Shown: in pieces, positions 9,206 through 17,072 of the stretch
How positions within the stretch are numbered: the first letter of the stretch is position 1
Layout: each line of letters opens with the position of its first letter
UHGV virus genome: UHGV-0310418
Length of the DNA: 22,968 bases
Direction: 5' to 3' (one strand)
From: a virus
Notes under the pieces: model-generated
What the model saw: only the letters and a program-made list of their open reading frames with translations
The model's database searches: none
Told to the model about the DNA's origin: nothing
Made by a program: the position numbers and the translations under genes

Positions 9206-9683
9206 CCAGCAAATCCGGTAATTTATCCCCTGCCCGCGCACACTGATTTGCGCCCTTCGCAATAAGGGTTTTCAGATGGTCAAGATGACGTGGCGTTAAA
9301 TCCGGGAACTGTCGCTGCATGGATAACGGAATAGAATCAAGCGTACTGGACAATGCCATCGCCAGCTTGCTGAGGGCGAAAACGCAGAAGTCTGAATCGA
9401 TGAGCTTACCTTCGGTTACCTGATTTTTAAGTTTTTGAGCTACGGCCTGTTCTTCTGTCAGTTCAGCTCTGGCCCGAAGCAGCCTTTCCTCCAGATCGCC
9501 CCCGTCATCAGGTGTTCTATGATTGTGTTGTCGCCGCTCGCGATCTATCTCCAGTACAGTTTTAACGTCATAAAAAACTTCCCTCCCCCGACGCTCGACA
9601 GGAGGAACGCCCCATTTATCAAATGCCTGAACAGAGATACCGATGGAGGAGGCCATATCACTTTTATTCAATAAAAAGGCCAT
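9177..9683 (-). CDS. Nu1: Terminase small subunit Nu1
   Basis: C-terminal half similar to lambda Nu1 (SKLAMALSSTLDSIPLSMQRQFPDL, HLDHLK, LLDEYI). Start taken at ATG preceded by GGAGAGGAG; an ATG 18 nt upstream (9701) is an alternative. Confidence 0.8.
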   Translation of the reverse strand: MAFLLNKSDMASSIGISVQAFDKWGVPPVERRGREVFYDVKTVLEIDRERRQHNHRTPDDGGDLEERLLRARAELTEEQAVAQKLKNQVTEGKLIDSDFCVFALSKLAMALSSTLDSIPLSMQRQFPDLTPRHLDHLKTLIAKGANQCARAGDKLPDLLDEYIRATTE

Positions 9684-9899
9684 CTCCTCTCCATAAGTCA
9701 TCGATAAAAAGCGATACAACAACCATGTGTTTTTACAAAACCATTTGATATCATTTAATTTTTTCACATTAATGACATCAAAGCACATCGTAAGGTTGTT
9801 GTATTTATTTTATTTTCACCTTACTTATCAATTAGATATACCAAACAATTAAACAACAACCACCCCCTCAAAAAATCTCATAAATAGCGAAAAACCGCG

Positions 9900-11698: not shown

Positions 11699-11905
11699 CT
11701 TCATTTTCACTTTCTTAAATCTAACGACAGACGGCTAACATTTAAGTATTGTGAAATATTATCAAATGTAATCATCATTGATTTACAAAAGATACATTTT
11801 GCCCCGAAAGGATTCCTGTCAGAAACATCAAAAGATGATGTTCTATACTGAGAACCATGGCAACACGGGCATCTAAAGTGAATATGGTTTGTAATATTTT
11901 CTACC

Positions 11906-12121
11906 TCAAAGTGCCACTACATGAACAGCCGCGGGGCCTTTAGGTCCGTTCTCAATACCAAATTCGACTTGCTGATTCTCAGTTAACGTTTTGAAATCGT
12001 TGCTCTGAATAGCTGAGAAATGGACAAACACATCTTTGCTACCATCTTTCGGCGTGATGAAACCAAAACCTTTTTCAGGGTTAAACCATTTCACTAAACC
12101 AGTCATTTTGTTAGACATCAT
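11906..12121 (-). CDS. cspI: Cold shock protein, CspA family (CspI-like)
   Basis: [35 protein letters not shown] contains both RNP motifs (KGFGFI, VFVHF). Near-identical to E. coli Qin CspI as recalled. Start may be the second ATG (12118). Confidence 0.85.
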
Positions 12122-12486
12122 TATTACCTTTTGAAGAAGTTAGCCCTTGGGCAGAATGGTCCGAAAAAAATATCAGAGAGAAAAACCAACAAGGAAATCT
12201 CAAGAGGTACAAATAATAAAATTATAACAATGACTGCTTCAGATAATTTTGTAACAAACCAGAACACCATTAACGCATGATTAACCAACCATAGCAAGGA
12301 TTACTTTTGTAAAGAAAAACACACGAATGAAACAATAGCTTTATTTATTAATAAAACGTGTCATTCTGTCTAATGACCTTTTATCTTACCCTTAAGATTT
12401 CAAGGATTTTGACTCATGGAAGAGTCCTTTTTATTTAAATTTCACATTCAGCACTAAAAATAATCCGATTTAATGTTAATCTACAT

Positions 12487-14200: not shown

Positions 14201-14416
14201 TTACTCTCTTCTCGCAACCTTACGCCTGTCTTCTTTAATCTTGAAATAAAGGTTTGTCAGATACGTCAGCAGGCCAAAAACCAGACTACCCAGCACACCG
14301 ATTGCAGCCCACTGTGACGGAGTTACTTTATCGAGTAACTGCAATGCCCAGAAACCAGCATTACCAGCCGATGTGCCATAGGCGATACCTGTTGTTAACT
14401 TATCCATTGATTTCAT
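14201..14416 (-). CDS. S: Class II holin / pinholin (phage 21 S-like) with dual-start motif
   Basis: 71 aa [26 protein letters not shown]...[32 protein letters not shown], very close to P21 S as recalled. M1-K-S-M4 gives the antiholin/holin dual start. Confidence 0.9.
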
Positions 14417-14634
14417 ATCCTCACCCCGATGTACACAGATGGTGCAATATGTTTGAAAAGATCGGAGTCTATGGGGTAGTTTTTATAGCAAACGTTGTTC
14501 TCAACGGCGCTAAAAAACAGACACATTAAAAATGTGGGTAATTATTTTAAAAGAAAATCATATATTAAATAATAATACGAGATATGTTTTCATATTTAGT
14601 GTACTGTATACGGCCATTTATACAGGAAAAGCCT

Positions 14635-14805
14635 ATGTCAGAACGTAAAGACTCAAAATCACGCCGTAATTATCTCGTTAAATGTTCCTGCCCAAACTGC
14701 ACCCAAGAGTCAGAACACAGTTTTTCAAGAGTACAAAAAGGTGCCCTTTTGATCTGCCCTCATTGCAACAAAGTATTCCAGACAAATCTTAAAGCTGTAG
14801 CTTGA
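14635..14805 (+). CDS. Small Cys4 zinc-ribbon protein, putative
   Basis: 56 aa from internal ATG with AGGAAAA Shine-Dalgarno; CxxC...19 aa...CxxC (CPNC, CPHC). Followed 60 nt downstream by a strong terminator. Track ORF 14584..14805 starts upstream. Confidence 0.55.
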   Translation: MSERKDSKSRRNYLVKCSCPNCTQESEHSFSRVQKGALLICPHCNKVFQTNLKAVA

Positions 14806-14864
14806 TTGATTTTATTCGTAACAAGTATTTTTTATATTTTAATAACATATTTAAAGCAGATAAT

Positions 14865-14887
14865 AAAAAACCCGCCTGAGCGGGTTT
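14865..14887. terminator. Bidirectional intrinsic terminator (A6-CCCGC-ctga-GCGGG-TTT)
   Basis: GC hairpin flanked by A6 on one side and TTTAAT on the other; serves the plus-strand zinc-ribbon gene and, on the minus strand (hairpin then TTTTTT), the cspB-like transcript. Confidence 0.7.
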
Positions 14888-15168
14888 AATATTGTGGTAC
14901 TTTTTGTGGGAGTCATCCACTTACGCACTTTGTTTTGCTATGCCAGCAGTTAGCTTCTGCTGTAAAACTATTCATGCAGCAAACCTGCACTTCACCACAA
15001 TGGTTAGCATACTTTTCCTGATTAAGTTATTGCCAAATATGCTGGCCATTGTTTCATGTATTGGACCTCCTTACTATTTATTAAAGAGATCCAATATTCA
15101 CCACTCTGTCTGTATCTCCACTCAGGCATCAGCCTTCTTCGTTATCGTATACAGACAAACTATGAATT

Positions 15169-15384
15169 TTAATCAGTAATTATGACATTTGCTGCTGCAG
15201 GACCTTTAGCACCACTCTCTACAGAGAAGGTAACCTTTTGACCTTCAAATAAGGTTCGATAATTATCATTCTGAATCGCAGAAAAATGCACAAACACATC
15301 TTTACTACCATCAACAGGAGAAATAAAGCCAAAACCTTTATCAGCGTTAAACCATTTTACTAAACCAGTCATTTTATTTGACAT
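15169..15384 (-). CDS. cspB: Cold shock protein, CspA family (CspB-like)
   Basis: [66 protein letters not shown] with both RNP motifs; near-identical to E. coli CspB as recalled; AAGGAA Shine-Dalgarno. Confidence 0.85.
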
Positions 15385-15684
15385 TCTACATTCCTTAACT
15401 TGAGCCTTTCGGCATAAATGGCTTGTATAACAGAAACGACTTCGTACTTAATTGGAGAGACTCAAAGAAGGAATAAGTGAATAACACCTGAAATGAGAAC
15501 TGCTTTAGTAAACTACTTCGTATATCGTCTGTTCTTCAAACCGACGCAATCATTAACGCATAGTTGAACATATGAAGCAATGTTTATTTTAGACATCCAG
15601 CCATCTTCAACCCCATCAAAAAACTATAGCTTTCTTCAGGAACGTGTGTATAGTGCGCCAAGTTATCAGTATTAAGGAATTTTT

Positions 15685-15897
15685 TTGTCCCGTAAAATGA
15701 CAGGAATTCTCAAAACCTTTGACGGCAAAAGCGGCAAAGGTCTTATAACCCCATCCGATGGTCGTATCGATGTCCAGCTTCATGTTTCAGCGCTCAATCT
15801 CCGCGATGCAGAAGAAATTACCACCGGATTACGCGTGGAATTTTGCCGGATAAATGGTCTGCGTGGACCATCAGCTGCCAATGTTTACCTTTCATGA
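15685..15897 (+). CDS. cspF: Cold-shock-domain protein lacking canonical RNP motifs (CspF/CspH-like)
   Basis: [37 protein letters not shown]...[13 protein letters not shown], matching E. coli CspF as recalled. Apparent TTG start 6 nt after AAGGAA; an in-frame ATG lies 12 nt downstream. Confidence 0.8.
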
Positions 15898-15950
15898 GCT
15901 ATATTAAAGCTTTAACTTCAAGCCCCATCGAATCAAACATGGAGAGTTTT

Positions 15951-16040
15951 CATGAATAAACCCGTCTGTCTTGATGACTGGTTGATTGGCTTTAAAAGCT
16001 TATGCTGTACTTTGACCTTAATAGCTCTGCTAATAATGTA
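15951..16040 (+). CDS. Candidate small hydrophobic peptide (29 aa: [29 protein letters not shown])
   Basis: ATG preceded by GGAGAG with a 5-nt spacer; short polar N-terminus followed by a roughly 19-residue hydrophobic stretch. Below the ORF-track length cutoff; found by reading the sequence. Confidence 0.3.
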
Positions 16041-16180
16041 ATAAGCAGACTCATTGTATCTATGGACATTGTACTGGAAGAAAACATTTTAAACATCAGG
16101 CAAAAAACAAAGTCACCCGATAAATAATAAGTAAACTAACATGAATCCCGTAATGAGATTCAACATCTCTATTACCCTAT

Positions 16181-16210
16181 TTAAAGCACAAAAACCCGCT
16201 CATCAGCGGG
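16181..16210 (-). terminator. tR'-like intrinsic terminator (bidirectional) just downstream of the late promoter
   Basis: CCCGCT-catc-AGCGGG hairpin; on the minus strand it is followed by TTTTTGTGCTTT, on the plus strand by TTTTCTACTTTTTC. Confidence 0.75.
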
Positions 16211-16259
16211 TTTTCTACTTTTTCTTAACTTCGGGTATACAAAGCCCATCGTTGAAAAA

Positions 16260-16288
16260 ATTTTATCCATATTTTTTGAAAAATGCAA
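16260..16288 (-). promoter_or_regulatory. Late promoter (pR'-like): -35 TTGCAT, 17-bp spacer, -10 TAAAAT
   Basis: Minus strand reads TTGCAT-ttttcaaaaaatatgga-TAAAAT, beginning about 32 nt after the Q stop; predicted transcript start is roughly 45-65 nt upstream of the terminator at 16181..16210. Confidence 0.7.
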
Positions 16289-16319
16289 GCATCACGTCGC
16301 CATCTTCGGCGAAAATCAC

Positions 16320-17072
16320 TTATCTCGTCACCTTTCTCAATTGTGCTTCAGCGTAAGATTCCTCCTGCCAGCACTTTGTAACCAGTTTATCAATGACATT
16401 TGCATATCCTTTATACCACTGATAATCACTCAGGTCCGGTACCAGCTTCTGGACATGATGCCGCGCCAGTGTGGTTGGTAAACGACTAAACCGTTTTCCA
16501 TTGCAACGCCCACAAATCTTATAAACAGGTGTGCCATGAAGCCGGGTCCTTTTTTCATCCAGGACAATACCTTTACCCTTACACCCTCTGCACGCTGTGC
16601 TGACTTCTCCCTTACCATGGCAATGCTGACATAGTTCCTTCACCCACTCTTCTTTGATAACAGATTCCCCGCTTCTGGAGTGTTTCACCACTTCGCGCAA
16701 TACATTATGAAATCCAGTACCAGCACAATGCTCACAACGAGCCTTACTTGCCGCAGACCTGGAATAATCAGCAAAGGCAAAATTCACAAGGTAAGGAATA
16801 ATCTGTAGCCGGGTTTCTTCACTCAATTTATTCAATGTCGGGTTATCCAGTGCCATCGCGTAATTGAGCAGACCTTCAATCGCAAACTGAGGATCCTGAA
16901 CACCAACTTTTGCCAGGAATAAGGCAAACCCAAGCGGTGCTTTCGACTGCACCATCCCCTGCGCAGCCATCACATCCGTAATCGTTAAACCACCAGAGCC
17001 TGTCGCCGGTGCGTCATCACTCAATTTTGGAGATTTTGGGGAGTAATATTTTGGTAAGGCTTCAAGGTTCAT
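16320..17072 (-). CDS. Q: Late-gene antiterminator Q (QuuQ / Q82-like family)
   Basis: 250 aa with Cys/His zinc-binding motifs (CEHCAGTG, CQHCHGKG, CRGCKGKG, CGRCNG); lies immediately upstream of the late promoter and terminator; same length and neighbourhood as E. coli Qin QuuQ as recalled. Confidence 0.8.
   Translation of the reverse strand: MNLEALPKYYSPKSPKLSDDAPATGSGGLTITDVMAAQGMVQSKAPLGFALFLAKVGVQDPQFAIEGLLNYAMALDNPTLNKLSEETRLQIIPYLVNFAFADYSRSAASKARCEHCAGTGFHNVLREVVKHSRSGESVIKEEWVKELCQHCHGKGEVSTACRGCKGKGIVLDEKRTRLHGTPVYKICGRCNGKRFSRLPTTLARHHVQKLVPDLSDYQWYKGYANVIDKLVTKCWQEESYAEAQLRKVTR

Follow-up and report, generated by a model that had tools for sequence, protein, structure and literature searches.

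A lambda-type late switch and an exchangeable cargo slot ahead of the lysis genes in a Qin-type prophage

A Q cassette is defined as the Q gene, the promoter pR', its pause element, a terminator and the downstream genes, and RNA polymerase that has taken up Q runs through terminators for thousands of base pairs (PMC9388147). In the virus genome UHGV-0310418, a stretch of 22,968 nucleotides (nt) analysed here in full and called the window, a Q gene is followed by a candidate pR' and a terminator, tR', and the holin gene S (essQ) lies well beyond them: from the predicted start site at 16253 to the holin ATG at 14416 is 1,838 nt. How is late transcription delivered to the lysis genes across this distance, and what is the DNA in between? 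The window is a Qin-type lambdoid prophage and the interval is the start of its late operon, a real but ordinary one. We consider it very probable that the locus combines a lambda-type Q switch, a moron (cargo) cassette held in a slot between tR' and S, readthrough by Q-modified polymerase to the lysis genes, and insulation of those genes by a second terminator, T2. The elements of the switch and its first lysis target are as follows.

16320..17072, minus strand: Q antiterminator gene, ydfT/quuQ homologue, 250 amino acids (Pfam PF03589, PDB 7ubm, ydfT annotation in Escherichia coli Z247 and K-12)
16260..16288, minus strand: proposed late promoter pR' (−35 TTGCAT at 16288-16283, 17-nt spacer, −10 TAAAAT at 16265-16260)
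16245..16253, minus strand: predicted start site (16253) and sigma-dependent pause element AACGAT(GGG), from identity to lambda +1..+9
16183..16214, minus strand: intrinsic terminator tR', also terminator-like on the plus strand (scan, fold, compensatory changes, K-12 Term-seq)
14201..14416, minus strand: essQ, class II holin of the phage 21 S type, first gene of the lysis cassette (Pfam PF04971, 7.3e-34)

E. coli Z247 matches the 3-kb Q-to-S stretch at 100% identity and the K-12 Qin prophage matches it at 95%; at least 80% of the stretch is present in approximately 1,600 of 5,426 complete E. coli genomes (~30%). The annotations of K-12 and Z247 share the order ydfU, ydfT (Q), ynfS, cspF, cspB, ynfU, essQ, ydfR, rrrQ, rzpQ, cspI; in the window, essQ is followed on the same strand by ydfR and the lysozyme and Rz genes. 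The annotated Z247 prophage appears complete: it has genes for immunity, replication, lysis, terminase, portal, capsid and tail, and every late gene is on the same strand as Q. The same Q-to-S layout is found, at 94–98% identity, in phages deposited as viable isolates (2H10, PhiR63_1, PhiR42_1, HannyBb and Tritos).

The full-length Q protein is a member of the lambda Q family (PF03589, 1.5e-53). Its alignment with the lambda Q chains of PDB 7ubm (1.1e-37) consists of two blocks that leave out residues ~121–159. These residues (window 16596..16712, minus strand) are a 39-amino-acid insertion relative to lambda Q and carry an extra CXXCXGXG zinc-finger motif, which brings the total to four, arranged much as in DnaJ (a sub-cut-off Pfam match to DnaJ_CXXCXGXG, 2.6e-07). 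Because of this insertion, the arm with which lambda Q contacts DNA and sigma region 4 may have a longer counterpart in the window's Q.

The proposed pR' (TTGCAT-17-TAAAAT) begins 31 nt past the Q stop codon, on Q's strand, and lines up with lambda pR' in the same register:

Window: TTGCAT-TTTTCAAAAAATATGGA-TAAAAT-TTTTTC-AACGATGGG
Lambda pR': TTGACT-TATTGAATAAAATTGGG-TAAATT-TGACTC-AACGATGGG

The spacer, presumed to be the site of the Q binding element, is identical to lambda at 11 of 17 positions and nearly invariant in relatives. The −10-like pause element AACGAT and the next three bases (AACGATGGG) are identical to lambda +1..+9 and stand at the same 6-nt distance from the −10 hexamer. Homology to lambda thus puts the predicted start at 16253 and AACGAT at +1..+6; the pause element occurs once in the whole window. 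The initial annotation had described this promoter as near-consensus, which does not fit the hexamers: the −10 matches the consensus at five of six positions and the −35 at only three of six. In a consensus promoter scan the proposed pR' fell below threshold and was not listed, and promoter-like sites in the region were not enriched (7 found, 8.6 expected). Identification by consensus alone is therefore untenable, and it is by homology that the proposed pR' is recognised.

Conservation of the promoter is sharply focused. A 44-nt block comprising promoter and pause element is 100% identical in K-12, 2H10 and PhiR63_1, and its flanks in close relatives have drifted (63–89% identity at the 3' end of Q, 74–94% in the spacer between Q and promoter). 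We fetched 80 related loci from IMG/VR whose Q protein is at least 97% identical to that of the window, containing 48 distinct post-Q sequences. The promoter lies 31 nt past Q in all 80 loci, and promoter plus AACGATGGG, with single-base variants, is in the same place in 48 of the 48 distinct sequences. Among 32 unique relatives the pause element is invariant or nearly so.

These elements are arranged differently in PhiR63_1. There (L008, 1081-2900) a degenerate copy resembling pR', with AAAGAG as its −10 and AATGAT as its pause element, stands after Q, ahead of 1.7 kb of small open reading frames (ORFs) and a remnant of the Q 3' end (75% identity over 73 nt, 2718-2790). Past the remnant come an intact pR'-tR' pair with the same sequence as in the window and then the csp cassette. 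As the copy next to Q is degenerate and the intact pair lies further on, the working late promoter of PhiR63_1 seems, from its sequence, to be some 1.7 kb away from Q.

The terminator tR' has its stem at 16214..16191 and a U tract extending to ~16183, and the enclosing region folds at −27.1 kcal/mol (z −3.75). Relative to the predicted start the stem spans +40 to +63, so that the terminated RNA would be ~67 nt long. Terminator-like sites numbered 9, against 3.9 (standard deviation 2.5) expected from shuffled sequences. In the 80 IMG/VR loci a hairpin and U tract recur at +40..+65 in several distinct sequence versions, and in a 24-sequence alignment five of the eight stem pairs have pair-keeping changes on both sides. 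The retention of pairing through two-sided changes indicates that tR' is under selection as a structure.

We compared these positions with the K-12 Term-seq data of Adams et al. (PMC7815308, supplementary file 1), in which each condition is represented by approximately 1,000 dominant 3' ends; window positions become MG1655 coordinates on adding 1,626,169. A dominant 3' end at 1642356 (minus strand) falls in the tR' U tract in all three conditions, with scores of 55,000–123,000 that exceed those of the hokD 3' end. This end had been classed as an 'orphan', and the placement of pR' and tR' accounts for it. Taken by themselves, the Term-seq data are no proof that the RNA ending at tR' begins at pR'. 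The pR'/tR' architecture put forward in the initial annotation is nevertheless upheld by the combination of a lambda-family Q, a pause element identical to lambda's, the spacer match in register, and a covarying terminator that is used in K-12.

Several further features surround tR'. The predicted pR'-tR' RNA (16184..16253, minus strand) has a conserved 5' stem at +1..+27, with one compensatory change, and an A-rich linker (AAGAAAAAGUAGAAAA) between this stem and the U-tailed terminator; its 3' end is abundant in the K-12 Term-seq data, where it is listed only as an orphan. By these features the predicted 67-nt RNA looks like an Hfq-type small RNA. In one related locus (L067, 7820-7895) the tR' stem is broken (ACCCGCCATCAAGTAGGTATTTT) and the promoter and pause element are kept, so this may be a naturally terminator-less late promoter. 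Adams et al. also list a stationary-phase 3' end at MG1655 1642188 (minus strand; window ~16019), 168 nt past tR' and antisense to ynfS, and a Rho termination region at 1643015 (plus strand; window ~16846), for plus-strand transcripts running antisense into ydfT. Sub-threshold Rfam matches on both terminators (Phe leader, Trp leader, isrK and others; E-values 0.14–0.89) were rejected as terminator-shaped chance, being far under the gathering scores.

The interval between tR' and S had been described as a late leader of about 1.8 kb. Rather than a dedicated leader it is a swappable moron slot of ~1.76 kb, AT-rich and with sharp limits, as its joints and its alternative contents in relatives indicate. 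In phages that share the window's Q, homology ends at window 16190, directly after tR', or at 16237; in phages that share its holin, homology resumes at 14428, 12 nt before the ATG. The guanine-plus-cytosine (GC) content of the cassette is 33–42%, against 46–58% in the flanks. In the window the slot contains the following.

14429..16190: AT-rich cargo (moron) cassette, from tR' to the S ribosome-binding site (homology limits, GC content, alternative cargos)
15952..16041, plus strand: ynfS-like small ORF, 29 amino acids, antisense to the late transcript (annotated in K-12, as ynfS, and in Z247)
15685..15897, plus strand: cspF, antisense to the late transcript (Pfam CSD 8.4e-21; annotation)
15385..15545, minus strand: cspB 5' untranslated region (5'UTR) of the cspA-thermoregulator type (Rfam RF01766)
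15169..15384, minus strand: cspB, sense with the late transcript (Pfam CSD 1.1e-31; annotation)
15059..15096, minus strand: 15-bp hairpin lacking a U tract, ~75–110 nt past the cspB stop (fold z −3.34)
14860..14887, both strands: second intrinsic terminator T2, bidirectional, strong in the direction of S and used by ynfU on the plus strand; stem 14887..14868, then a T tract (scan, fold z −5.95)
14635..14805, plus strand: ynfU zinc-ribbon gene, antisense to the late transcript (Pfam PF23499 YnfU 4.7e-31; annotation)

All features named in the initial annotation were found in place when the minus strand and the ORF list were read. Its inventory of elements between promoter and holin held for those it named and was incomplete, having missed the small ynfS gene and the third hairpin (15096..15059, minus strand).

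At least five alternative contents occupy the slot among relatives. Counts from the 80 IMG/VR loci, with the distance from Q to S, were:

csp cassette: 13 loci, ~1.9 kb
cspB and ynfU only: 1 locus, 1.2 kb
SfV-type orf47 and methylase: 17 loci, 1.72 kb
Lipoprotein, orf47 and methylase: 7 loci, 2.34 kb
No recognisable content: 8 loci, 669 nt
No recognisable content: 3 loci, ~1,078 nt
Longer, uncharacterised content: 2 loci, 2.5 and 3.9 kb

The distance thus ranges from 0.67 to 3.9 kb in these relatives and exceeds 4.5 kb in Shiga toxin (Stx) 2c phages with the same Q, whose slot is occupied by a lipoprotein gene, a methylase, two transfer RNA (tRNA) genes and stx2AB, each set apart by terminators. 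Given these varied contents, distances and terminators, a long Q-to-S interval with several terminators is the rule in this group. Whatever sits in the slot (cold-shock genes, methylase, lipoprotein, Shiga toxin or a second Q) would come under Q control by position alone.

The second Q was seen in locus L041 (7835-8569, plus strand), right after the lambda-type Q, pR' and tR'. It belongs to a different family (PF06323, 3.4e-80) and is followed by a LydA-type holin (PF16083) at 9460-9873, giving tandem antiterminators of two unrelated families. The post-Q sequence type of this locus recurs in roughly 25 of the 80 loci, with no holin match to our queries; the second Q was confirmed only in L041. 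In the Tritos alignment the 248-nt ynfS spacer is missing and cspF is present. The divergent cspF-cspB pair with its intergenic region (15270..15890) is ~78% identical to chromosomal cspH-cspG, found in nearly all E. coli, which suggests from the sequences that one locus was derived from the other. Rz is followed by another AT-rich block of cargo genes, all oriented like the late operon (~11860..12300, minus strand, and downstream): cspI, which has its own cspA-thermoregulator match (113.7 bits), then ynfQ, ynfN and gnsB in Z247.

The cassette carries regulatory signals of its own, as morons do: a cspA-type leader, a 3' hairpin, T2 and mapped 3' ends in K-12. The cspB leader matches Rfam RF01766 at 156.7 bits (gathering score 78; match 15106..15545), and a Rho-sensitive 3' end at 1641634 lies within the cspB 5'UTR in K-12. 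The strongest 3' end of the region, at 1641224-6 (minus strand), is just past the 15-bp hairpin, which is likely the 3' end of the cspB mRNA. In uninduced K-12, cspB transcripts mostly stop before T2. In an LF82 lysogen, cspB and cspI of the Tritos prophage are listed as morons, at 59- and 93-fold over the prophage background (PMC9928086 Table 1). These close relatives, Tritos and K-12, point to expression of cspB from repressed prophages independently of Q. Next to the hairpin, an 11-codon ORF (15057..15022, MKQWPAYLAIT) with a perfect Shine-Dalgarno sequence (TAAGGAGGT) 7 nt ahead was rejected as a gene: TAAGGAGGT is the 3' arm of the cspB hairpin, and the ORF is probably fortuitous.

T2 is 100% identical in K-12 and 100% conserved in four relatives. 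Both tR' and T2 function as terminators in K-12, where a plus-strand 3' end at 1641060 falls at T2 and fits ynfU. The initial annotation was right that a second strong terminator precedes S; the role it assigned, as a terminator of the late leader, is the less well supported one. We infer that T2 most plausibly belongs to the cargo itself and acts in both directions; it would insulate the lysis genes from the cspB promoter.

Put together, the proposed mechanism is as follows. pR' would fire constitutively, with the Q binding site in the promoter spacer and a sigma-70-dependent pause at +1..+6. Lacking Q, polymerase would halt at tR' (~+63 to +67) and release an RNA of ~67 nt. Once loaded with Q at the AACGAT pause, it would pass tR', the cspB 3' hairpin and T2, and go on to transcribe the holin and other lysis genes, the second cargo block (cspI, ynfQ, ynfN, gnsB) and the morphogenesis genes. 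Such a late transcript would carry cspB in sense and cross cspF, ynfS and ynfU antisense. The cassette (ynfS, cspF, cspB, ynfU) would meanwhile work with its own promoters, cold-shock leader and terminators. T2 would end cspB-side and ynfU transcription, and in the lysogen would stop polymerase from the strong, cold-inducible cspB promoter before it reached the holin, because that polymerase never passed pR' and so has no Q loaded. With an autonomous cassette and readthrough, cspB would have two sources of transcription: its own signals in the lysogen, and the late transcript, on which it would ride as a passenger.

That Q-modified polymerase reaches S through the cassette, and hence transcribes cspB, is the most likely course of events. 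Readthrough to S, already proposed in the initial annotation, is the explanation that best suits the surroundings of S, which has no conserved upstream region of its own: homology to the S genes of other phages begins 12 nt before the ATG, and in relatives with the same Q the gene directly follows the cargo, starting 4 nt after it in mEp460 and 38 nt after a terminator in SfV.

Several points weigh against this account. The −35 hexamer is weak, and supplements of Cappable-seq and SMRT-Cappable-seq hold no entry near MG1655 1642422, the counterpart of the predicted start at 16253, or near 1640446. The K-12 Term-seq end at tR' could in principle also be the end of the ydfT mRNA, and no minus-strand 3' end is listed at T2 in those data. 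A literature search on quuQ/ydfT with cspB found no study of Qin late transcription. For this phage type, readthrough of T2 and output of cspB from the late transcript are predictions.

Could S and the lysis genes instead have a promoter of their own in the ynfU-S intergenic region (14417..14634), so that pR' transcripts need not cross the cassette? A weak minus-strand match there (TTAATA-16-AATAAT, 14568..14541, 9 of 12 positions) and the 94–99% conservation of the region in close relatives would agree with this. However, such matches occur at chance level in AT-rich DNA, as the unenriched scan showed, and homology to the S genes of other phages reaches only 12 nt upstream of the ATG. In mEp460 and SfV, with the same Q, S abuts the cargo and there is no room for one. 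A motif search between tR' and S found no second pause element, and constitutive expression of holin and endolysin would harm the lysogen. We regard a separate S promoter as very improbable. Still less credible, to the point that we give it almost no weight, is that the locus is a decaying remnant in which pR' or Q is inactive and the terminators merely end cargo transcripts. The closest well-studied copy, K-12 Qin, is indeed a cryptic prophage, and the weak −35 would suit decay. Yet Q is full length, and sequence drift on either side has left promoter and pause element untouched. In Z247 the prophage has complete gene sets for immunity, replication, lysis, terminase, head and tail, and near-identical modules are found in plaque-forming phages.

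Another possibility concerns the meaning of the cargo: cspB, and cspI after Rz, might be adaptive in the late programme, with a Q-driven RNA chaperone and antiterminator supporting late transcription, translation or lysis, for instance in the cold, and with antisense passage silencing cspF, ynfS and ynfU. Both csp genes read in the direction of the late operon, one on either side of the lysis cassette, and the layout is carried by the ~1,600 complete E. coli genomes and several viable phages. CspA-family proteins are RNA chaperones and transcription antiterminators, at least in the statement of Bae et al. 2000 as cited in PMC7858274. All carriers, however, share one closely related cassette, so that the csp orientation counts as a single event and not as repeated selection. 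Relatives that share both Q and holin manage without the cassette. cspB has kept a cold-shock leader of its own and is expressed while the prophage is repressed, and beyond this group few coliphages have csp genes. An adaptive late role is therefore unlikely in our judgement. CspE is reportedly able to interfere with Q antitermination, a point not used here as evidence. We would likewise give only a small chance to the broader idea that CspB and CspI act as late proteins aiding the long late transcript or lysis in the cold while the 67-nt RNA serves in the lysogen as an Hfq-type regulator like StxS. The functional coupling of CspB to late growth suggested in the initial annotation, and modulation by convergent transcription, are speculation.

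Under the preferred account, of a Q switch reading through a moron slot, the late promoter, pause element and tR' of very common Qin-type prophages are placed at single-base resolution, which is mainly of value for annotation. The finding is correct and useful for that purpose; it was already known in kind and largely in instance. It raises no new question beyond a possible benefit to the phage of cold-shock proteins expressed with the late genes.

Compared with known systems, the locus is closest to Qin of K-12, with which it shares gene order and orientation, the 95% nucleotide identity over 3 kb, and promoter, pause element and T2 at 100%. Unlike the truncated, cryptic Qin, the window's prophage looks complete from terminase to tail, and ydfR and the segment after it differ slightly. 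With lambda it shares the Q family, a promoter right after Q, the spacing from −10 to pause, AACGATGGG and a terminator ahead of the lysis genes. Lambda differs in having tR' at ~+194 rather than ~+63 and ~0.6 kb to S rather than 1.84 kb, whereas the window has the 39-residue zinc-finger insertion in Q, a class II holin of the phage 21 type and a weaker −35.

In Stx phages, stx is transcribed from pR' with the late genes by Q-modified polymerase through several terminators, and the short pR'-tR' RNA is constitutive (StxS small RNA), with a precursor of 258 nt (PMC7547250). Stx2c phages carry the window's Q-pR'-tR' block at 96% identity, with cargo in the same slot. Their cargo differs (toxin, tRNAs, methylase and lipoprotein), S is more than 4.5 kb off, and the StxS precursor is far longer than the 67 nt predicted here. 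The Shigella phage SfV has the block at 95%, and its authors annotated two terminators that bracket the cargo, one following Q and the other shortly ahead of S; its cargo, orf47 and a 350-amino-acid methylase-like gene, is all sense, and its holin is of a different type. Qin, SfV and the Stx phages already provide known examples of the arrangement; the K-12 annotation covers the locus, and earlier work has described the cargo genes as morons. The switch itself is a plain lambda homologue, and the logic of cargo under Q is textbook for Stx phages.

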